Below, in pieces: positions 4,990-33,438 of a stretch of 40,549 nucleotides of DNA. Source of the stretch: Escherichia coli. GTDB lineage: Bacteria; Pseudomonadota; Gammaproteobacteria; Enterobacterales; Enterobacteriaceae. Every line of letters starts with the position of its first letter. The first letter of the stretch is position 1. The DNA lies in the NCBI RefSeq assembly GCF_003334765.1, contig NZ_QOWT01000035.1; one strand, 5' to 3'. Position numbers and translations under genes: made by a program. Below the pieces are notes generated by a model. It saw only the letters and a list, made by a program, of their open reading frames with translations. It had not been told where the DNA came from and searched no databases.

Positions 4990-5013
4990 ATGCGCCAGGA
5001 TGCAGAGGTAATC

Positions 5014-7413
5014 ATGAAGCTAACCGATGCGGATAATGCCGCCGATGGCATTTTTTTCCCCGCCCTTGAGCAAAATATGATGGGTGCGGTGTTAATTAAC
5101 GAAAATGATGAAGTGATGTTTTTCAACCCCGCCGCAGAGAAGCTCTGGGGATACAAACGTGAAGAAGTCATTGGCAATAACATTGATATGCTGATTCCGC
5201 GGGATTTGCGTCCTGCGCATCCTGAATACATTCGTCACAACCGTGAAGGCGGTAAAGCGCGTGTTGAGGGGATGAGTCGGGAGCTGCAGCTGGAGAAAAA
5301 AGACGGCAGTAAAATCTGGACCCGTTTTGCGCTATCGAAAGTGAGCGCCGAGGGGAAAGTTTATTACCTGGCGCTGGTACGGGATGCCAGCGTAGAAATG
5401 GCGCAAAAAGAACAGACCCGACAATTGATTATTGCCGTTGACCATCTCGACCGACCGGTGATTGTCCTCGATCCGGAACGCCATATTGTGCAGTGCAATC
5501 GCGCATTTACCGAAATGTTTGGTTACTGCATTAGCGAAGCCAGCGGTATGCAGCCCGATACACTCCTGAACATTCCTGAATTCCCTGCCGATAACCGCAT
5601 TCGTTTACAACAGTTGCTATGGAAAACCGCCCGCGATCAGGACGAATTTCTGCTGTTGACGCGCACCGGTGAAAAAATCTGGATTAAAGCCTCTATCAGC
5701 CCGGTTTATGACGTGCTCGCGCATCTGCAGAACCTGGTAATGACTTTCTCGGATATCACCGAAGAACGGCAGATTCGCCAGCTTGAAGGCAATATTCTCG
5801 CCGCCATGTGCAGCAGCCCGCCATTTCATGAAATGGGGGAAATCATTTGTCGTAACATCGAATCTGTACTCAACGAATCGCATGTTTCGCTGTTCGCACT
5901 GCGCAACGGGATGCCGATACACTGGGCGTCATCTTCCCACGGTGCAGAAATTCAAAATGCGCAAAGCTGGTCAGCGACCATTCGTCAGCGTGATGGCGCG
6001 CCTGCGGGGATCCTGCAAATTAAAACCTCGTCAGGAGCAGAAACCAGCGCCTTTATCGAACGCGTGGCAGATATCAGCCAGCATATGGCCGCGCTGGCGC
6101 TGGAACAGGAAAAAAGCCGTCAGCATATTGAACAACTCATCCAATTTGATCCGATGACCGGTCTGCCAAATCGCAATAACCTGCACAATTACCTCGATGA
6201 CCTGGTCGACAAAGCCGTCTCTCCCGTGGTGTATCTCATCGGTGTTGACCATATTCAGGATGTGATTGATAGCCTTGGCTATGCGTGGGCCGATCAGGCA
6301 TTGCTGGAAGTGGTCAATCGCTTTCGTGAAAAACTCAAACCGGATCAGTATCTCTGTCGTATCGAAGGTACGCAGTTTGTCCTCGTGAGCCTCGAAAACG
6401 ACGTCAGTAACATTACCCAAATCGCCGATGAGCTACGGAATGTGGTCAGCAAGCCGATAATGATTGACGATAAACCCTTCCCGCTTACCTTGAGTATTGG
6501 CATCAGCTACGACCTGGGTAAAAACCGCGATTACTTGCTCTCCACTGCTCACAATGCAATGGATTATATTCGCAAGAATGGCGGTAACGGCTGGCAGTTC
6601 TTCAGCCCGGCGATGAACGAAATGGTAAAAGAGCGTTTGGTTTTAGGCGCAGCGCTGAAAGAAGCGATTAGCAATAACCAACTGAAACTGGTTTACCAGC
6701 CGCAAATCTTCGCAGAAACGGGTGAACTGTACGGCATCGAAGCCCTTGCTCGCTGGCACGATCCCCTGCATGGTCATGTGCCCCCTTCACGGTTTATTCC
6801 TCTCGCAGAAGAGATTGGTGAAATCGAAAATATTGGGCGCTGGGTCATCGCGGAAGCTTGCCGTCAGTTAGCAGAATGGCGTAGCCAGAATATTCATATC
6901 CCGGCGTTATCCGTGAACTTGTCGGCGCTGCACTTTCGCAGTAATCAACTGCCTAATCAGGTGTCTGATGCAATGCACGCCTGGGGTATTGACGGCCACC
7001 AGCTGACGGTAGAAATCACGGAAAGCATGATGATGGAACACGATACCGAAATCTTTAAGCGCATTCAGATCCTGCGTGATATGGGCGTGGGCTTATCGGT
7101 AGATGATTTTGGTACGGGCTTTTCCGGATTATCCCGCTTAGTCAGTCTTCCGGTAACGGAAATCAAAATTGACAAAAGTTTTGTCGATCGTTGTCTGACC
7201 GAAAAACGCATCCTTGCCTTACTTGAAGCCATTACCAGCATTGGGCAAAGCCTCAATTTAACCGTCGTGGCGGAAGGCGTCGAAACCAAAGAGCAATTTG
7301 AGATGCTACGCAAGATCCACTGTCGCGTTATTCAGGGATATTTCTTTTCCCGCCCCCTACCCGCCGAAGAAATTCCAGGCTGGATGAGCAGCGTGTTACC
7401 GCTGAAAATCTGA
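5014..7413 (+). CDS. dosP: heme-PAS c-di-GMP phosphodiesterase (O2 sensor), 799 aa
   Basis: ORF track gives 4990..7413 (807 aa); the start is placed at the internal ATG (MKLTDADNAADGIFF...) to give the 799-aa length I recall for DosP. EAL motif (YGIEALARW) and a degenerate GGDEF region are visible. Start 25 nt after the dosC stop. Confidence 0.9.
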   Translation: MKLTDADNAADGIFFPALEQNMMGAVLINENDEVMFFNPAAEKLWGYKREEVIGNNIDMLIPRDLRPAHPEYIRHNREGGKARVEGMSRELQLEKKDGSKIWTRFALSKVSAEGKVYYLALVRDASVEMAQKEQTRQLIIAVDHLDRPVIVLDPERHIVQCNRAFTEMFGYCISEASGMQPDTLLNIPEFPADNRIRLQQLLWKTARDQDEFLLLTRTGEKIWIKASISPVYDVLAHLQNLVMTFSDITEERQIRQLEGNILAAMCSSPPFHEMGEIICRNIESVLNESHVSLFALRNGMPIHWASSSHGAEIQNAQSWSATIRQRDGAPAGILQIKTSSGAETSAFIERVADISQHMAALALEQEKSRQHIEQLIQFDPMTGLPNRNNLHNYLDDLVDKAVSPVVYLIGVDHIQDVIDSLGYAWADQALLEVVNRFREKLKPDQYLCRIEGTQFVLVSLENDVSNITQIADELRNVVSKPIMIDDKPFPLTLSIGISYDLGKNRDYLLSTAHNAMDYIRKNGGNGWQFFSPAMNEMVKERLVLGAALKEAISNNQLKLVYQPQIFAETGELYGIEALARWHDPLHGHVPPSRFIPLAEEIGEIENIGRWVIAEACRQLAEWRSQNIHIPALSVNLSALHFRSNQLPNQVSDAMHAWGIDGHQLTVEITESMMMEHDTEIFKRIQILRDMGVGLSVDDFGTGFSGLSRLVSLPVTEIKIDKSFVDRCLTEKRILALLEAITSIGQSLNLTVVAEGVETKEQFEMLRKIHCRVIQGYFFSRPLPAEEIPGWMSSVLPLKI

Positions 7414-7425
7414 CAAATTCCTCTC

Positions 7426-7449
7426 GCCCGCACTCGCGGGTTTTCATTT
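7426..7449 (+). terminator. rho-independent terminator downstream of dosP
   Basis: Inverted repeat CCCGC / GCGGG with short loop immediately followed by TTTTCATTT, starting 13 bp after the dosP stop. Confidence 0.65.
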
Positions 7450-7610
7450 AACGTGACACTGTCACTTAAATACTGTGATTTCAGCTACGATTCCGGGAGA
7501 TTCCTTCCTTAACTTCCCCTCTTGCACCAAAACTGCACTACGCTGCACAAATGTTGATCAAAAGTTAAAAAATATAACTTTAAGCCAGCATTCTGGCGCT
7601 TATCCCGGCA

Positions 7611-7626
7611 TGGCATGAGATCTGCA
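7611..7626 (+). promoter_or_regulatory. candidate sigma54 (-24/-12) promoter for ddpX operon
   Basis: TGGCATGAGATCTGCA matches the sigma54 consensus TGGCACG-N4-TTGCA with correct GG..GC spacing, about 45 bp upstream of the ddpX ATG; TGCAC repeats lie 65-90 bp further upstream. Confidence 0.55.
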
Positions 7627-7670
7627 TAAGCGGAAAGCGCAGCAATTTTTGTCTTATACAGGAACCGTTT

Positions 7671-8252
7671 ATGTCGGATACCACCGAACTGGTTGATTTA
7701 GCCGTAATCTTCCCTGATCTGGAGATCGAATTGAAATACGCCTGCGCTGATAACATCACAGGTAAAGCTATTTATCAGCAAGCGCGTTGTCTGTTACACA
7801 AGGATGCGATTACCGCGCTGGCGAAAAGTATCAGCATCGCCCAGCTGTCAGGGTTACAACTGGTGATTTACGATGCGTATCGCCCACAACAAGCACAGGC
7901 GATGTTGTGGCAAGCCTGCCCAGACCCGCAATATGTTGTTGATGTGACGGTCGGTTCTAATCACAGCCGTGGCACGGCGATCGACCTGACGCTTCGTGAT
8001 GAGCACGGGAACATCCTCGATATGGGCGCAGGGTTCGATGAAATGCACGAGCGCTCCCATGCCTATCACCCTTCCGTCCCGCCCGCCGCTCAGCGCAATC
8101 GGCTGTTGCTGAATGCGATAATGACTGGTGGCGGTTTTGTCGGTATCTCCAGCGAATGGTGGCACTTCGAATTACCCCAGGCAGCGAGTTACCCTCTGCT
8201 CGCTGATCAATTCTCTTGTTTTATATCCCCTGGCACACAGCACGTCAGTTAA
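7671..8252 (+). CDS. ddpX: D-Ala-D-Ala dipeptidase (VanX homologue), 193 aa
   Basis: 193-aa ORF recognised as DdpX; first gene of a six-gene cluster with an ABC dipeptide transporter downstream. Confidence 0.92.
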   Translation: MSDTTELVDLAVIFPDLEIELKYACADNITGKAIYQQARCLLHKDAITALAKSISIAQLSGLQLVIYDAYRPQQAQAMLWQACPDPQYVVDVTVGSNHSRGTAIDLTLRDEHGNILDMGAGFDEMHERSHAYHPSVPPAAQRNRLLLNAIMTGGGFVGISSEWWHFELPQAASYPLLADQFSCFISPGTQHVS

Positions 8253-8265
8253 TCAGGAAACTGTC

Positions 8266-9816
8266 ATGAAGAGATCGATATCGTTTCGTCCCACATTGCT
8301 CGCGCTCGTCCTTGCCACAAATTTCCCGGTTGCGCACGCCGCCGTACCAAAAGATATGCTGGTGATTGGTAAGGCCGCCGATCCACAAACCCTCGACCCG
8401 GCGGTAACAATAGATAATAACGACTGGACAGTGACCTACCCGTCTTATCAGCGGCTGGTTCAGTACAAAACGGACGGTGATAAAGGCTCAACCGACGTTG
8501 AAGGCGATCTGGCAAGTAGCTGGAAAGCGTCTGACGATCAAAAAGAGTGGACGTTCACCCTGAAAGATAATGCTAAATTTGCCGATGGCACACCTGTCAC
8601 TGCCGAAGCAGTAAAACTTTCTTTTGAGCGGCTACTAAAAATCGGCCAGGGGCCAGCAGAAGCATTTCCCAAAGATTTAAAGATTGATGCTCCCGACGAA
8701 CATACGGTGAAGTTTACCCTTAGCCAACCATTCGCACCGTTCCTCTACACGCTGGCGAATGACGGTGCATCCATTATCAATCCGGCGGTCTTAAAGGAAC
8801 ATGCAGCGGATGATGCTCGCGGCTTCCTCGCGCAAAATACCGCCGGTTCCGGACCATTTATGCTGAAAAGCTGGCAAAAAGGTCAGCAATTAGTTCTGGT
8901 GCCAAATCCGCATTACCCAGGCAATAAACCGAACTTCAAACGGGTATCGGTAAAAATTATTGGTGAAAGTGCCTCCCGTCGCCTGCAGCTCTCCCGTGGC
9001 GACATTGACATTGCCGATGCGCTGCCGGTGGATCAACTCAACGCCCTGAAGCAGGAAAATAAAGTCAATGTGGCAGAGTATCCGTCACTGCGCGTTACCT
9101 ATCTGTATCTGAATAACAGCAAAGCGCCTCTTAATCAGGCGGATCTGCGTCGGGCCATTTCCTGGTCTACCGATTATCAGGGCATGGTTAACGGCATTCT
9201 GAGTGGTAACGGAAAACAGATGCGCGGCCCGATTCCGGAAGGCATGTGGGGCTACGATGCGACGGCAATGCAATACAACCATGACGAAACGAAAGCCAAA
9301 GCCGAATGGGATAAAGTGACGAGCAAACCCACCAGCCTGACGTTTCTCTACTCCGATAACGATCCGAACTGGGAGCCTATTGCTCTGGCGACACAATCCA
9401 GTCTCAACAAGCTGGGCATCATTGTGAAGCTGGAAAAGCTGGCGAACGCCACCATGCGCGACAGAGTGGGTAAAGGTGATTACGACATTGCGATTGGCAA
9501 CTGGAGTCCGGATTTTGCCGACCCGTATATGTTTATGAATTACTGGTTTGAGTCAGACAAAAAAGGTCTGCCGGGTAACCGCTCGTTCTATGAAAACAGT
9601 GAGGTCGATAAGTTACTGCGCAATGCGCTTGCGACCACCGACCAGACGCAGCGTACCCGGGACTACCAGCAGGCACAGAAAATCGTCATTGATGACGCTG
9701 CTTATGTGTACCTGTTCCAGAAAAACTACCAACTGGCGATGAACAAAGAGGTGAAAGGCTTTGTGTTCAATCCCATGCTGGAACAGGTCTTCAATATCAA
9801 TACCATGAGTAAATAA
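8266..9816 (+). CDS. ddpA: periplasmic substrate-binding protein of D,D-dipeptide ABC transporter, 516 aa
   Basis: ORF track gives 8128..9816 overlapping ddpX; start placed at the internal ATG giving MKRSISFRPTLLALVLATNFPVAHA signal peptide and the recalled 516-aa length. Confidence 0.9.
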   Translation: MKRSISFRPTLLALVLATNFPVAHAAVPKDMLVIGKAADPQTLDPAVTIDNNDWTVTYPSYQRLVQYKTDGDKGSTDVEGDLASSWKASDDQKEWTFTLKDNAKFADGTPVTAEAVKLSFERLLKIGQGPAEAFPKDLKIDAPDEHTVKFTLSQPFAPFLYTLANDGASIINPAVLKEHAADDARGFLAQNTAGSGPFMLKSWQKGQQLVLVPNPHYPGNKPNFKRVSVKIIGESASRRLQLSRGDIDIADALPVDQLNALKQENKVNVAEYPSLRVTYLYLNNSKAPLNQADLRRAISWSTDYQGMVNGILSGNGKQMRGPIPEGMWGYDATAMQYNHDETKAKAEWDKVTSKPTSLTFLYSDNDPNWEPIALATQSSLNKLGIIVKLEKLANATMRDRVGKGDYDIAIGNWSPDFADPYMFMNYWFESDKKGLPGNRSFYENSEVDKLLRNALATTDQTQRTRDYQQAQKIVIDDAAYVYLFQKNYQLAMNKEVKGFVFNPMLEQVFNINTMSK

Positions 9817-9817
9817 C

Positions 9818-10840
9818 GTGACCTTCTGGAGTATTTTACGCCAACGCTGCTGGGGGCTGGTGCTCGTGGTGGCGGGCGTCTGCGTGATTACGTTTATTAT
9901 CTCGCATCTGATCCCTGGTGATCCGGCGCGGTTACTGGCGGGTGACCGCGCCAGCGATGCTATCGTGGAAAATATTCGCCAGCAACTGGGACTGGACCAG
10001 CCACTGTATGTACAGTTTTACCGCTACGTCAGCGACCTGTTTCATGGTGACCTGGGAACATCCATTCGTACCGGGCGTCCGGTGCTGGAAGAGTTGCGTA
10101 TATTTTTCCCGGCGACGCTGGAGCTGGCTTTTGGTGCCCTGCTGCTGGCACTCCTGATTGGCATCCCGCTGGGCATACTCTCTGCAGTCTGGCGAAATCG
10201 CTGGCTGGATCATCTGGTGCGAATAATGGCCATTACCGGAATCTCCACACCTGCGTTCTGGCTTGGGCTGGGCGTCATTGTGCTGTTTTATGGTCATCTG
10301 CAAATTCTTCCCGGCGGCGGAAGGCTTGATGACTGGCTGGATCCACCAACGCACGTTACCGGCTTTTATCTGCTCGATGCGCTGCTTGAAGGCAACGGTG
10401 AAGTCTTCTTCAATGCGTTGCAACATCTCATCTTACCGGCATTAACGCTGGCGTTCGTTCACCTGGGAATTGTCGCTCGCCAGATCCGCTCAGCGATGCT
10501 GGAACAATTGAGTGAAGACTACATTCGTACCGCCCGGGCCAGCGGCTTGCCCGGCTGGTATATCGTTTTATGTTATGCGCTACCCAATGCGTTGATCCCA
10601 TCGATTACCGTATTGGGTTTGGCGCTGGGCGATTTGTTGTATGGCGCAGTGCTCACCGAAACCGTTTTTGCCTGGCCCGGAATGGGTGCATGGGTAGTAA
10701 CATCAATACAGGCGCTCGACTTCCCGGCAGTGATGGGCTTTGCCGTCGTGGTTTCATTTGCTTATGTGCTGGTCAACCTGGTGGTGGATTTGCTCTATTT
10801 GTGGATTGATCCGCGTATCGGACGTGGAGGTGGTGAATGA
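9818..10840 (+). CDS. ddpB: ABC transporter permease, 340 aa
   Basis: GTG start 1 nt after the ddpA stop; multi-TM permease recognised as DdpB (DppB-like). Confidence 0.9.
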   Translation: MTFWSILRQRCWGLVLVVAGVCVITFIISHLIPGDPARLLAGDRASDAIVENIRQQLGLDQPLYVQFYRYVSDLFHGDLGTSIRTGRPVLEELRIFFPATLELAFGALLLALLIGIPLGILSAVWRNRWLDHLVRIMAITGISTPAFWLGLGVIVLFYGHLQILPGGGRLDDWLDPPTHVTGFYLLDALLEGNGEVFFNALQHLILPALTLAFVHLGIVARQIRSAMLEQLSEDYIRTARASGLPGWYIVLCYALPNALIPSITVLGLALGDLLYGAVLTETVFAWPGMGAWVVTSIQALDFPAVMGFAVVVSFAYVLVNLVVDLLYLWIDPRIGRGGGE

Positions 10841-11733
10841 TGCTAAGCGAGGAAACGTCCGCCGTACGCCCACAAAAACAAACGCGATTTAACGGTGCAA
10901 AACTGGTATGGATGCTGAAAGGCAGTCCGCTCACCGTGACCAGCGCAGTCATCATTGTATTAATGCTATTGATGATGATTTTTTCACCGTGGCTGGCGAC
11001 GCATGATCCCAACGCCATTGATTTAACCGCCCGCCTTTTGCCGCCTTCTGCGGCGCACTGGTTTGGCACCGATGAAGTGGGACGCGATCTGTTTAGCCGC
11101 GTACTGGTCGGCAGTCAGCAATCAATTCTCGCCGGATTAGTCGTGGTTGCCATTGCGGGTATGATTGGTTCGCTACTCGGATGTCTATCCGGTGTGCTTG
11201 GTGGACGCGCAGACGCCATCATCATGCGCATCATGGACATTATGCTGTCGATTCCTTCGTTGGTACTGACAATGGCACTGGCTGCCGCTCTCGGGCCGAG
11301 TTTGTTTAACGCCATGCTGGCTATTGCTATTGTGCGAATTCCCTTTTATGTGCGCCTGGCGCGGGGGCAAGCATTAGTTGTACGCCAGTATACCTATGTT
11401 CAGGCGGCGAAAACCTTTGGCGCGTCTCGTTGGCATCTGATCAACTGGCATATTTTACGTAACTCCCTACCGCCGCTGATCGTGCAGGCATCGCTGGATA
11501 TCGGTAGCGCGATTTTAATGGCCGCCACGTTGGGATTTATTGGCCTGGGTGCTCAACAACCGAGTGCTGAATGGGGCGCGATGGTAGCAAATGGTCGCAA
11601 CTATGTACTCGATCAGTGGTGGTATTGCGCATTTCCGGGGGCAGCGATTTTGCTTACCGCCGTCGGGTTTAATCTCTTTGGTGATGGTATTCGCGATCTG
11701 CTTGACCCGAAAGCAGGAGGAAAGCAGTCATGA
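10837..11733 (+). CDS. ddpC: ABC transporter permease, 298 aa
   Basis: ATGA start/stop overlap with ddpB; DppC-like permease. Confidence 0.9.
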   Translation: MMLSEETSAVRPQKQTRFNGAKLVWMLKGSPLTVTSAVIIVLMLLMMIFSPWLATHDPNAIDLTARLLPPSAAHWFGTDEVGRDLFSRVLVGSQQSILAGLVVVAIAGMIGSLLGCLSGVLGGRADAIIMRIMDIMLSIPSLVLTMALAAALGPSLFNAMLAIAIVRIPFYVRLARGQALVVRQYTYVQAAKTFGASRWHLINWHILRNSLPPLIVQASLDIGSAILMAATLGFIGLGAQQPSAEWGAMVANGRNYVLDQWWYCAFPGAAILLTAVGFNLFGDGIRDLLDPKAGGKQS

Positions 11734-12716
11734 CCCAACCCGTTCTGGACATTCAACAACTGCATTTGAGTTTCCCCGGTTTTAACGGTGATGTTCACGC
11801 GCTCAACAATGTGTCCTTGCAGATTAACCGCGGTGAAATTGTCGGTCTGGTGGGAGAATCCGGCTCAGGTAAATCAGTCACCGCAATGCTGATTATGCGT
11901 CTGCTACCGACGGGCAGTTATTGCGTACATCGGGGGCAGATTTCCCTGCTGGGAGAAGATGTTCTTAACGCGCGGGAAAAACAGCTTCGTCAGTGGCGCG
12001 GCGCACGAGTGGCGATGATCTTTCAGGAACCGATGACCGCCCTCAATCCGACACGTCGAATAGGTCTTCAGATGATGGACGTGATCCGCCATCATCAACC
12101 AATAAGTCGTCGGGAAGCCAGAGCTAAAGCGATTGACCTGCTGGAAGAGATGCAAATCCCGGATGCCGTGGAAGTTATGTCGCGCTATCCGTTTGAGCTT
12201 TCAGGTGGTATGCGCCAGCGGGTAATGATTGCGCTGGCATTCTCCTGCGAGCCGCAATTGATTATTGCCGACGAACCGACTACGGCGCTGGACGTCACGG
12301 TGCAGTTGCAGGTACTGCGTTTGCTTAAACATAAAGCCCGCGCCAGTGGAACTGCGGTTCTGTTCATCAGCCATGATATGGCCGTGGTGTCGCAACTGTG
12401 CGATAGCGTTTACGTGATGTATGCCGGAAGCGTAATTGAAAGCGGCGTGACGGCAGACGTTATCCATCATCCCCGGCATCCGTATACCATTGGTTTGCTG
12501 CAATGCGCACCAGAACATGGAGTACCACGCCAGCTATTACCCGCCATTCCAGGGACGGTACCAAACCTCACCCATTTGCCTGACGGCTGCGCTTTTCGCG
12601 ATCGTTGCTATGCGGCAGGTGCACAGTGTGAAAACGTCCCGGCGCTGACAGCGTGTGGTGACAACAACCAGCGCTGTGCCTGTTGGTATCCGCAGCAGGA
12701 GGTTATAAGTGTCTGA
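11730..12716 (+). CDS. ddpD: ABC transporter ATP-binding protein, 328 aa
   Basis: Walker A GESGSGKS and signature LSGGMRQR visible; ATGA overlap with ddpC. Confidence 0.92.
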   Translation: MTQPVLDIQQLHLSFPGFNGDVHALNNVSLQINRGEIVGLVGESGSGKSVTAMLIMRLLPTGSYCVHRGQISLLGEDVLNAREKQLRQWRGARVAMIFQEPMTALNPTRRIGLQMMDVIRHHQPISRREARAKAIDLLEEMQIPDAVEVMSRYPFELSGGMRQRVMIALAFSCEPQLIIADEPTTALDVTVQLQVLRLLKHKARASGTAVLFISHDMAVVSQLCDSVYVMYAGSVIESGVTADVIHHPRHPYTIGLLQCAPEHGVPRQLLPAIPGTVPNLTHLPDGCAFRDRCYAAGAQCENVPALTACGDNNQRCACWYPQQEVISV

Positions 12717-13635
12717 CACGTTATTAACGTTACGCGACGTCCATATCAATTTCCCGGCCCGTAAAAACTGGCTTGGTAAAACTACGGAACATGTTCATGC
12801 CATTAATGGTATTGATTTACAGATCCGCCGTGGTGAAACCTTAGGGATCGTCGGCGAGTCAGGCTGCGGCAAAAGCACCCTCGCACAGCTTTTAATGGGT
12901 ATGCTGCAACCGAGCCACGGGCAGTACATCCGTTCTGGCTCACAACGCATTATGCAGATGGTGTTTCAGGACCCGCTCTCTTCGCTTAATCCGCGCTTAC
13001 CGGTGTGGCGCATCATCACAGAACCGCTCTGGATAGCTAAGCGTAGTAGTGAACAACAGCGGCGAGCGTTGGCAGAGGAGTTGGCTGTGCAGGTGGGTAT
13101 TCGTCCGGAGTATCTCGACCGCCTGCCTCATGCGTTCTCCGGCGGGCAGCGGCAACGTATCGCCATTGCCAGAGCACTCTCTTCGCAGCCTGACGTGATT
13201 GTGCTTGATGAGCCAACCTCTGCGCTGGATATCTCCGTTCAGGCGCAGATCCTCAATTTACTGGTAACGCTACAGGAAAATCACGGGCTGACCTATGTGC
13301 TGATTTCACACAATGTCTCGGTGATACGTCATATGAGCGATCGGGTGGCGGTGATGTATCTCGGGCAGATTGTAGAACTGGGCGACGCGCAGCAGGTGCT
13401 GACGGCACCTGCACATCCATACACCCGATTATTGCTGGATTCCCTCCCCGCCATTGATAAACCGCTGGAGGAAGAATGGGCATTACGTAAAACGGATCTG
13501 CCGGGAAACCGCACGTTGCCGCAAGGCTGTTTTTTCTACGAACGTTGCCCGCTGGCAACCCACGGATGTGAAGTCCGGCAATCATTAGCAATAAGGGAGG
13601 ACGGACGTGAGCTCCGGTGCTGGCGGGCGCTGTAG
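12709..13635 (+). CDS. ddpF: ABC transporter ATP-binding protein, 308 aa
   Basis: GTG start overlapping the ddpD end by 8 nt; Walker A GESGCGKS and signature FSGGQRQR visible. Confidence 0.9.
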   Translation: MSDTLLTLRDVHINFPARKNWLGKTTEHVHAINGIDLQIRRGETLGIVGESGCGKSTLAQLLMGMLQPSHGQYIRSGSQRIMQMVFQDPLSSLNPRLPVWRIITEPLWIAKRSSEQQRRALAEELAVQVGIRPEYLDRLPHAFSGGQRQRIAIARALSSQPDVIVLDEPTSALDISVQAQILNLLVTLQENHGLTYVLISHNVSVIRHMSDRVAVMYLGQIVELGDAQQVLTAPAHPYTRLLLDSLPAIDKPLEEEWALRKTDLPGNRTLPQGCFFYERCPLATHGCEVRQSLAIREDGRELRCWRAL

Positions 13636-13690
13636 AGATGCTAACAACGCATCAGGCATTCACGCGCCTGACGCGTCATCCGGCAATGCT

Positions 13691-18755: not shown

Positions 18756-19409
18756 TTATATCCCTTCTTCACTCTCTTTTTTCGCTTCTGCCTTCTCGAT
18801 TTCACGATACCAGCGCGGATGGTGTTTCTTCGCCCAGCGACGACTTACCTTCCCTTCGATCATCCCTTTAATCGATCCTTTCACCCAAAATGCCATATAC
18901 ATATGGATCAGGATGGCGTGGATCAGGATGATACCCGCAGCCGCGTGGATCAGCAGGCTGTAGCGAACAACCTGCATCGGGAAGTACTGCGCAAAGTACG
19001 GACGCCAGATAATCACCCCGGTCACCAGCAGCACGAAAATCATGCTCATGATCGACCAGAACATCATCTTTTGCCCGGCGTTGTACTTACCGACATCCGC
19101 CACTTTATGCTCATTGCCTTTCAATACTTCGACAATGTTCAACAGCCACGGAATATCTTTCTTATCCGGGATGTTGTGATGCACAAAACGCACAAACATA
19201 AACATCAGTGCGACGAAAATCGCAATGCCGAAGAACGGGTGCAAAATGCGTCCCATCTGCGGCGTACCGAAGGTTTGCGTCAGCCATTGCAGCGTCGGGA
19301 AGAAGAACGAAATCCCGGACAGCGCCACCAGGAAGAAGCAAATCACCACGGTCCAGTGACAGGCGCGATCAATAAATTTGGTGCGCACAATCATTTTCGA
19401 CTTACTCAT
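18756..19409 (-). CDS. fdnI: formate dehydrogenase-N gamma subunit (cytochrome b), 217 aa
   Basis: ORF track gives 231 aa from 19451; start placed at [12 protein letters not shown]... to give the recalled 217 aa; overlaps the fdnH end by 8 nt. Confidence 0.9.
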
Positions 19410-31897: not shown

Positions 31898-33438
31898 AAA
31901 TCCGTTCACAAGTCGGCATGGTGCTTAACCTCGACAAATGTATCGGCTGCCATACCTGTTCGGTGACCTGTAAAAACGTCTGGACCGGGCGCGAAGGCAT
32001 GGAGTACGCATGGTTTAACAACGTCGAAACCAAACCGGGCATTGGTTATCCGAAAAACTGGGAAGATCAGGAAGAGTGGCAAGGCGGCTGGGTGCGTGAT
32101 GTGAATGGCAAGATACGCCCGCGTCTGGGCAACAAGATGGGCGTAATAACCAAAATCTTCGCCAACCCGGTGGTGCCGCAGATTGATGATTACTACGAAC
32201 CTTTCACCTTCGACTACGAACATTTGCATAGCGCACCGGAAGGCAAACATATTCCTACTGCTCGCCCGCGTTCACTGATTGACGGCAAACGGATGGACAA
32301 AGTGATCTGGGGGCCAAACTGGGAAGAACTGCTGGGCGGTGAGTTCGAAAAACGTGCCCGCGACCGCAACTTCGAGGCCATGCAAAAGGAGATGTACGGG
32401 CAGTTTGAAAACACCTTCATGATGTACCTGCCGCGCCTGTGCGAACACTGCCTCAATCCCAGCTGCGTGGCGACCTGCCCAAGCGGCGCTATCTACAAAC
32501 GCGAAGAAGACGGCATTGTGCTGATTGATCAGGATAAATGCCGTGGCTGGCGTTTGTGCATAAGCGGTTGTCCGTACAAAAAAATCTACTTCAACTGGAA
32601 AAGCGGCAAGTCAGAAAAATGCATCTTCTGTTACCCACGAATTGAGTCCGGTCAACCGACCGTGTGCTCAGAAACCTGCGTGGGTCGCATCCGGTATCTG
32701 GGCGTGCTGCTTTACGACGCCGACCGCATCGAGGAAGCGGCGAGCACCGAGCGCGAAGTTGACCTCTATGAACGCCAGTGCGAAGTGTTCCTCGATCCAC
32801 ACGATCCCTCAGTGATCGAGGAAGCCCTGAAACAAGGTATTCCACAAAATGTGATTGACGCTGCCCAGCGTTCGCCAGTCTACAAAATGGCGATGGACTG
32901 GAAACTGGCACTACCGTTGCACCCTGAATACCGCACCCTGCCGATGGTCTGGTACGTTCCTCCGCTGTCACCGATTCAGTCCTACGCAGATGCGGGCGGT
33001 TTGCCGAAAAGCGAAGGCGTGCTGCCCGCCATCGAAAGCCTGCGTATTCCGGTGCAATATCTCGCCAATATGTTGAGTGCCGGCGATACCGGTCCGGTAC
33101 TGCGGGCGCTGAAACGGATGATGGCGATGCGCCACTATATGCGTTCACAAACCGTGGAAGGCGTTACTGATACTCGTGCCATCGACGAAGTAGGCCTGAG
33201 CGTCGCCCAGGTCGAAGAGATGTATCGCTATCTCGCCATTGCCAACTATGAAGATCGTTTTGTTATCCCGACCAGCCATCGGGAAATGGCGGGCGATGCC
33301 TTCGCAGAACGCAACGGCTGCGGTTTTACCTTTGGCGACGGTTGCCACGGTTCGGACAGTAAATTCAACCTGTTCAACAGTAGCCGTATCGATGCCATCA
33401 ACATCACCGAAGTGCGCGACAAAGCGGAGGGCGAATAA
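31894..33438 (+). CDS. narY: nitrate reductase Z beta subunit (Fe-S), 514 aa
   Basis: Four Cys clusters (e.g. CIGCHTCSVTC, CEHCLNPSCVATCP); ATGA overlap with narZ. Confidence 0.95.
   Translation: MKIRSQVGMVLNLDKCIGCHTCSVTCKNVWTGREGMEYAWFNNVETKPGIGYPKNWEDQEEWQGGWVRDVNGKIRPRLGNKMGVITKIFANPVVPQIDDYYEPFTFDYEHLHSAPEGKHIPTARPRSLIDGKRMDKVIWGPNWEELLGGEFEKRARDRNFEAMQKEMYGQFENTFMMYLPRLCEHCLNPSCVATCPSGAIYKREEDGIVLIDQDKCRGWRLCISGCPYKKIYFNWKSGKSEKCIFCYPRIESGQPTVCSETCVGRIRYLGVLLYDADRIEEAASTEREVDLYERQCEVFLDPHDPSVIEEALKQGIPQNVIDAAQRSPVYKMAMDWKLALPLHPEYRTLPMVWYVPPLSPIQSYADAGGLPKSEGVLPAIESLRIPVQYLANMLSAGDTGPVLRALKRMMAMRHYMRSQTVEGVTDTRAIDEVGLSVAQVEEMYRYLAIANYEDRFVIPTSHREMAGDAFAERNGCGFTFGDGCHGSDSKFNLFNSSRIDAINITEVRDKAEGE

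Follow-up and report, generated by a model that had tools for sequence, protein, structure and literature searches.

The promoter of ddpX (ddpXp) in Escherichia coli is an already documented sigma54/NtrC-dependent promoter. The 17-mer ATGGCATGAGATCTGCA is the intergenic sigma54 ChIP-seq site OS16, which was assigned to ddpX and has its peak centred 4 bp off the middle of the 17-mer, and transcription was predicted to start 34 nt before ddpX, with the status "predicted in EcoCyc" (Bonocora 2015; PMC4591121). The ddpXABCDF operon is also among the 21 NtrC ChIP-seq peaks obtained from nitrogen-starved cells, as peak 6 (Brown 2014; PMC4066584). In a third study, RpoN gSELEX recovers the ddpX promoter site, NtrC and the RpoN holoenzyme each shift a ddpX probe in gels and together produce a supershift corresponding to a ternary complex, and nitrogen depletion raises ddpX mRNA 104.5-fold as determined by RT-qPCR (Shimada 2021; PMC8743547). 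The authors conclude there that activation of ddpX requires both RpoN and NtrC; ddpX was not seen in the searched passages of their table on gSELEX with NtrC alone. These data support the original prediction, which had been made from the letters of the DNA alone and which placed a sigma54/NtrC promoter in front of ddpX and proposed induction of the ddp operon under nitrogen limitation; both statements had already been published. The scavenging of D-Ala-D-Ala for nitrogen, which that prediction also invoked, is a standing proposal in the literature.

The response is not uniform along the operon. According to the literature, ddpF mRNA increases only 2.2-fold on nitrogen depletion, against 104.5-fold for ddpX, and RpoD gSELEX detects only an internal promoter at ddpA/ddpB and none upstream of ddpX. 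This suggests strong polarity or separate control inside the ddp operon.

Other NtrC-dependent promoters of E. coli K-12 provide a scale on which ddpXp can be placed. Twelve of them were used for calibration and were numbered from their published sigma54 motifs, and candidate NtrC sites were compared with the 17-bp dyad consensus TGCACCAnnnTGGTGCA, which has 14 specified positions. The same numbering recovers the NtrC sites of glnAp2 at -140 and -108 and those of glnHp2 at -108 and -121. The promoter glnHp2 uses IHF. The best NtrC match per promoter ranges from 13/14 in glnA, glnH, and nac down to 8-9/14 in argT, patA, gltI, and yeaG.

The DNA analyzed here, referred to as the window, is a stretch of 40,549 nucleotides of the E. 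coli chromosome that includes the dosP-ddpXABCDF region, in which dosP, ddpX, and the genes from ddpA onward all lie on the + strand. The dosP-ddpX intergenic region is 257 bp long and holds the promoter and a block of TGCAC repeats, with the dosP terminator at its left edge. The features of the region are as follows.

4990-7413, + strand: dosP, whose ORF ends at 7413.
7423-7450, + strand: intrinsic terminator of the upstream dosCP operon, with the stem GCCCGC/GCGGGT at 7426-7441 followed by a T-rich tail.
7490-13646, + strand: segment holding the enhancer, the promoter, and ddpXABCDF, which is missing as a block in some E. coli (BLAST).
7523-7539, + strand: candidate NtrC-type site A, TGCACCAAAACTGCACT, centre at -106, with a perfect left half TGCACCA and a degenerate right half.
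7534-7538, + strand: middle TGCAC, sharing bases with the right half of site A.
7544-7560, + strand: candidate NtrC-type site B, TGCACAAATGTTGATCA, centre at -85, matching the consensus at 10/14.
7561-7609, no strand: spacer from the enhancer to the core promoter, AT-rich at its upstream end.
7610-7626, + strand: sigma54 -24/-12 core promoter ATGGCATGAGATCTGCA, identified by weight matrix, ChIP-seq motif, and conservation.
7637, + strand: predicted transcription start, 19 nt downstream of the motif centre at 7618 (Bonocora convention).
7671-8252, + strand: ddpX, encoding D-alanyl-D-alanine dipeptidase, the first gene of ddpXABCDF (ORF of 193 aa, RefSeq annotation).

The ddpX product scores 334.7 bits against the NCBIfam model NF007557, for which the cut-off is 176, and the terminator scan returned 2 terminator-like matches where 0.3 were expected. 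No match to a known RNA element was found in the leader and intergenic region with Rfam at E-values up to 1. Two further features of the intergenic region were observed. A near-perfect palindrome, TTAACGTGACA-c-TGTCACTTAAA, lies at 7448-7470, with the dosP terminator on one side and the ddp deletion junction on the other; it is kept in other Escherichia species and in ddp-less strains, and is absent from other genera. The pentamer TGTGA at 7474-7478, about 45 bp upstream of site A, is among the few stretches outside the enhancer that are invariant in an alignment of Escherichia, Citrobacter, and Enterobacter. It could be a CRP-type half-site, with a poor second half.

Compared with ddpXp as published by Bonocora, Brown, and Shimada, the core 17-mer, the strand, the predicted start, and the assignment to RpoN and NtrC are identical here; what is added is the reading of the enhancer as two sites at -106 and -85, and its conservation footprint across genera. 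Among the calibration promoters, that of glnK-amtB resembles ddpXp in having a weak NtrC-type pair upstream of a consensus -24/-12 element, with matches of 10/14 at -87 and 9/14 at -107 that correspond to 10/14 at -85 and 9/14 at -106 in ddpX. The two differ in that the -87 site of glnK keeps both half-sites as an inverted repeat (TGCACTGTCATAGTGCG), whereas only the left halves are good in ddpX, and in that an additional TGCAC on the same strand overlaps site A in ddpX. With glnAp2 and glnHp2 the predicted ddpX enhancer shares an arrangement of at least two NtrC sites, 85-140 bp upstream of the sigma54 promoter and spaced by whole turns. The sites of glnAp2 and glnHp2, however, match the consensus at 12-13/14, in contrast to 9-10/14 in ddpX. 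As for IHF, the best match to its consensus at ddpX has 2 mismatches, in contrast to glnHp2. Site B, at 10/14, equals the best sites of glnK, rutA, and yhdW, and the quality of the ddpX sites is typical of second-tier NtrC promoters.

The sigma54 element had been predicted as TGGCATGAGATCTGCA at 7611-7626 on the + strand, and it is present there. Its GG at 7612-7613 corresponds to -25/-24 and its GC at 7624-7625 to -13/-12; the two dinucleotides are separated by 10 bp, which is exactly the sigma54 spacing that had been claimed. When compared with TGGCAYG-N4-TTGCW, the sequence has one mismatch among the 12 specified positions (C for T at 7622), and its 3' end lies 44 nt before the ddpX ATG at 7671, in agreement with the distance of about 45 bp given earlier. 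The Bonocora prediction, when K-12 coordinates are mapped onto the window, falls at 7637, the very position that the original prediction had named as the approximate start. A mapped 5' end for ddpX was not found in the searchable literature.

Searches for the consensus with up to one mismatch gave 3 matches in the window, where 1.26 were expected, and 17 of 100 shuffled sequences also reached 3. Position-weight-matrix scoring, which had been proposed as a check, was performed with a leave-one-out matrix from 41 published intergenic ChIP-seq sites that themselves range from 8.7 to 21.6 bits. At 15.9 bits, the 17-mer at 7610-7626 falls on the training-set median, and a stretch of 40.5 kb, both strands included, should contain about 0.38 matches of this quality. 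By itself the motif is therefore not compelling; what makes it so is its strand, together with its position directly before a gene start. The only other sigma54 match of such quality in the window is CTGGCACTACCGTTGCA at 32905-32921 (+ strand), within an ORF of 514 aa. With 16.9 bits it outscores the ddpX site, and it corresponds to the intragenic ChIP-seq site IS19 in narY (Bonocora 2015; PMC4591121). Two further sigma54-like 17-mers, both on the - strand, are ATGGCGTGCTTATTGCG at 21205-21221 (14.0 bits) and ATGGGACGCATTTTGCA at 19240-19256 (13.8 bits); the text of the Bonocora paper (PMC4591121) contains neither of them.

Conservation was examined in 80 ddpX loci of other genera taken from species-representative genomes, with 66 distinct promoter regions; these loci are related to one another, so that the counts given below are not independent. 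Two other Escherichia species carry exactly this sigma54 17-mer. Of the 80 loci of other Enterobacterales, 65 have an element of at least 12 bits heading the operon (ATGGCACGCGTCCTGCA, for example), and in the 1.5 kb upstream of ddpX the coding strand gives 81 sigma54 matches where the control strand gives 17. A stand-alone ddpX next to thyA, without ddpABCDF, is present in some Erwinia, Pantoea, and related genomes (loci L038, L073, and also L042). L038 and L073 have strong sigma54 elements of their own, which score 15.5 and 17.9 bits, and L038 has a recognisable homologue of site B, while L073 has two TGCAC copies 21 bp apart. As these ddpX genes possess their own promoter elements, the promoter module travels with ddpX.

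A different sigma factor might nevertheless be the main one. Expression of DdpX in stationary phase was reportedly found to be sigmaS-dependent by Lessard et al. in 1998. It has also been published that ddpXA is RpoS-dependent in stationary phase in E. coli O157:H7; therefore, at least one further input exists. The main driver of ddpX could then be a sigmaS or sigma70 promoter located between dosP and ddpX, with the sigma54 site being poised or minor. However, no sigma70-type -35/-10 promoter was found in 7380-7700, and RpoD gSELEX gives no promoter upstream of ddpX. The 104.5-fold induction is attributed to RpoN and NtrC, and the conservation of the sigma54 element across genera argues against sigmaS or sigma70 as the main driver. 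We consider this explanation improbable. The effect of RpoS on ddpXA may be indirect, or ddpX may have an additional weak sigmaS promoter, which would be compatible with sigma54 and NtrC as the main explanation.

The block of TGCAC repeats had been described as three copies at 7523-7547. Three copies are indeed present, all on the + strand, at 7523-7527, 7534-7538, and 7544-7548, so that the block extends one base further than described. Among 300 windows simulated with a Markov model, 6 had three TGCAC on the same strand within 22 bp. In the real window, moreover, this pentamer is rarer than expected, with 67 copies found and 105 expected. A cluster by chance is thus unlikely. As NtrC sites, the repeats stand out less. 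Sites A and B match the consensus at 9/14 and 10/14, respectively, and are the top consensus matches of the intergenic region; 16 places in the window match at 10/14 or better. With a small NtrC matrix, site A ranks 20th and site B 47th among 40,533 window positions, and about one pair of sites of such quality with a distance of 18-35 bp is expected per window by chance. Neither the consensus matches, nor the matrix ranks, nor the pair statistic is significant, and we accordingly discarded statistical significance as an argument for sites A and B. Their centres at -106 and -85 are 21 bp apart, a distance of whole helical turns.

When promoters are aligned on the sigma54 element, the block TGCACCAAAA[C/G]TG[A/C]ACTACGCTGCACAAATGTTGATCA..GTTAA shows almost no change all the way from Escherichia to Cronobacter-type loci, and its flanks cannot be aligned. 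The left half of site A, TGCACCA, is found in 40 of the 66 orthologous promoter regions. At least one TGCAC on the promoter strand is present in 58 regions and at least two in 51, with at least three in only 17. A pair of TGCAC 20-22 bp apart, as are the left halves of sites A and B in E. coli (21 bp), occurs in 39 of the 66. Site B hardly varies in Citrobacter, Enterobacter, Lelliottia, and Huaxiibacter, and better dyads are found at its position in Raoultella (TGCACCTTCTTTGTGCA, 12/14) and Serratia (TGCCCAATTGTTGTGCA, 11/14), and at the position of site A in Lonsdalea (TGCACCAACATGGATCG, 11/14). The TGCAC pair lies 66 to 90 bp from the sigma54 element, depending on the region, and this variability is enhancer-like; the E. 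coli spacer is 11 bp shorter than those of Citrobacter and Enterobacter. Strict helical phasing across genera was considered and abandoned, as the offsets of 66, 77, 88, 101, and 114 are not clean multiples of a turn.

The middle copy behaves differently from the other two. Most Citrobacter and Enterobacter loci have TGAAC in its place, and the E. coli 17-mer that begins with it at 7534 scores -3.9 bits with the NtrC matrix, at rank 1116. Together with the presence of at least three copies in only 17 of 66 regions, this led us to reject three equivalent sites. The original prediction is thus retained in that the array has the character of an NtrC-type enhancer and revised in the number of sites, which is two. 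The array can best be described as two weak, degenerate 17-bp NtrC-type sites of which only the left halves are good, and the middle TGCAC is probably a lineage-specific overlap and not an independent site. Our reading is that two NtrC sites would be ancestral, that their right halves would have decayed in the group of Escherichia, Citrobacter, and Enterobacter, and that an extra TGCAC would have been added in a particular lineage. The assignment of NtrC to the bases of sites A and B is inferred from position and conservation. No NtrC footprint of the ddpX promoter was found in the searchable literature, and a full-text literature search with the sequence of site A gave no match.

The NtrC ChIP-seq data do not help to locate the enhancer. 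The ddpX peak of Brown 2014 corresponds to 7590-7670 of the window (centre at -7), about 90 bp downstream of sites A and B. The peaks of all 12 operons checked are centred at -30 to +29 relative to the predicted start. The known or best NtrC dyads are located 85-250 bp upstream, off the peak centres, and the result also holds for operons with strong dyads 108-253 bp upstream. Because the offset is systematic in all 12 operons, the coordinates are uninformative for this purpose, and the ddpX peak neither supports nor contradicts sites A and B. The offset may reflect cross-linking to the polymerase by way of the loop, or it may come from peak calling.

The TGCAC array could also be part of a second sigma54 site, CTTGCACCAAAACTGCA at 7521-7537, with TG in place of GG. 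The sigma54 matrix gives this 17-mer 12.9 bits, which is within the training range of 8.7-21.6 bits and the fifth-best score in the window, and published sigma54 sites with TG at -24 do exist, such as that of potF, TATGCACGTTTATTGCA (PMC4591121). Against this, its "-12 GC" is contributed by the middle TGCAC, which is TGAAC in most Citrobacter and Enterobacter while the block as a whole is conserved. The centre of the sigma54 ChIP-seq peak is about 90 bp away from 7521-7537 and only 4 bp from the centre of the main motif, and 7521-7537 is suitably spaced from a gene start only by way of the main promoter. We regard a second site as very unlikely and, as it is not conserved, rejected it as a functional element. 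Finally, that the sigma54 and NtrC motifs are functionless chance matches, as might be argued from the 0.38 sigma54 matches expected per window and the commonness of 10/14 NtrC matches, has practically no likelihood, as it is already refuted by the published ChIP-seq, gel shift, and expression data, and both elements are conserved in dozens of genera in which the flanking intergenic DNA has diverged.

Toward the upstream end of the spacer, the segment 7549-7590 has an A+T content of 76% and includes an A6 tract and the GTTAA at 7563-7567 that is conserved in close genera. When 7541-7615 was scanned with the IHF consensus WATCAANNNNTTR, the best match was GATCAAAAGTTAA at 7556-7568, with 2 mismatches, while 43 places in the window match this consensus with at most one mismatch. 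An IHF site in the spacer was rejected on the basis of this best match. Intrinsic bending of the spacer, with its 76% A+T, is possible. Sigma54 RNA polymerase would occupy 7610-7626 as a closed complex that is unable to open alone. Upon nitrogen limitation, phosphorylated NtrC would assemble on the weak sites at -106 and -85, which lie on the same face, loop out the AT-rich spacer, and contact the polymerase. ATP hydrolysis by NtrC would then open the promoter, with transcription beginning near 7637. In this scheme, we infer the bases contacted by NtrC, the exact start, and looping without IHF; sigma54 occupancy, NtrC association, and the strong induction on nitrogen depletion come from published experiments. 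Overall, it is likely, and we are confident, that 7523-7637 is a nitrogen-regulated promoter of ddpXABCDF that works by sigma54 together with NtrC at sites A and B.

Outside Escherichia, the same module seems to face a second regulator. A gene for a MurR/RpiR-type regulator of about 285 aa is located directly upstream of ddpX in 65 of the 80 loci of other genera, including Citrobacter, Enterobacter, Serratia, Raoultella, Pantoea, Brenneria, Mixta, and others (for example, L004:2046-2986, L015, and L051). In 65 of the 80 loci, the module of enhancer and sigma54 element precedes the regulator gene, in the same order and orientation as in E. coli, with the sigma54 element about 55-60 nt before the regulator gene (57 nt in Citrobacter youngae). 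The orthologous promoters of Citrobacter, Enterobacter, Serratia, Raoultella, Pantoea, and Brenneria thus resemble that of E. coli in their homologous enhancer block and sigma54 element, and differ in that they drive the regulator gene before ddpX, whereas the E. coli promoter drives ddpX directly. The best NCBIfam model for the regulator is SapR, a name that derives from a surface-attachment regulator of Burkholderia. The enterobacterial proteins score 374-429 bits, below the cut-off of 500 bits for the family, and the function of SapR was for this reason not transferred to them.

A palindrome, TGTTA-N6-TAACA, is found downstream of the -12 element in 60 of the 65 loci with the regulator. In most loci it begins two bases after the TGCA of the -12 element, covering about -9 to +7; the Serratia-type loci have it further downstream, from near +7 onward. 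A second element, TGACAG..TAACA, comes after the palindrome. In Escherichia, neither the regulator gene nor TGTTA-N6-TAACA nor TGACAG..TAACA was found, and the stand-alone ddpX loci L038 and L073 likewise have no palindrome, no TGACAG..TAACA, and no regulator gene. The co-occurrence of palindrome and regulator gene suggests that TGTTA-N6-TAACA is a putative operator for the MurR/RpiR-type regulator. The last 30 nt or so of the E. coli leader (within 7627-7670) weakly resemble, over a short alignment of moderate similarity, the 3' end of the regulator gene and the ribosome-binding region of ddpX. This is a hint that the leader may keep about the last 25 nt of the regulator gene, as would be expected after a deletion.

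This raises the possibility, which we put forward tentatively and would not yet prefer over its contrary, that in most Enterobacterales the ddp promoter has two inputs, activation by NtrC and sigma54 and repression at the palindrome by the SIS-domain MurR/RpiR regulator. Escherichia would have deleted the operator and nearly the whole regulator gene, so that the sigma54 promoter became fused to ddpX and nitrogen limitation became the sole specific input; the extra TGCAC would be part of this remodelling.

The entire module is also absent from part of the species. Approximately 1,175 of 5,392 matching complete E. coli records (about 22%) cover only 7414-7492 of the window, and BLAST homology in ddp-less genomes stops at 7489 and resumes at 13647. 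The left junction of the missing block is 33 bp upstream of the first TGCAC. In the genomes without the block, osmC comes after dosP; in strain CEA212U, for instance, dosP adjoins osmC directly. The gene upstream of dosP in this strain (L094:6411-6575) is annotated only as a partial diguanylate cyclase pseudogene, and therefore the dosC side has also eroded in the lineage of CEA212U.

Our results demonstrate that a reading of the sequence without other information recovered a real promoter, down to its predicted start. That ddpXp is a target of RpoN and NtrC was already known, and the anatomy of the enhancer and the missing second regulator are small additions to this knowledge. The left half-sites at 7523-7529 and 7544-7550 are proposed as the candidate bases contacted by NtrC in an enhancer that has apparently never been footprinted. 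The coordinates of the NtrC ChIP-seq data of Brown 2014 mark the core promoter and not the enhancer, which matters for the finding of NtrC sites. As an evolutionary by-product, the comparison points to a repressor-like second input in other genera and none in E. coli, and to a fifth of E. coli genomes that lack the module.
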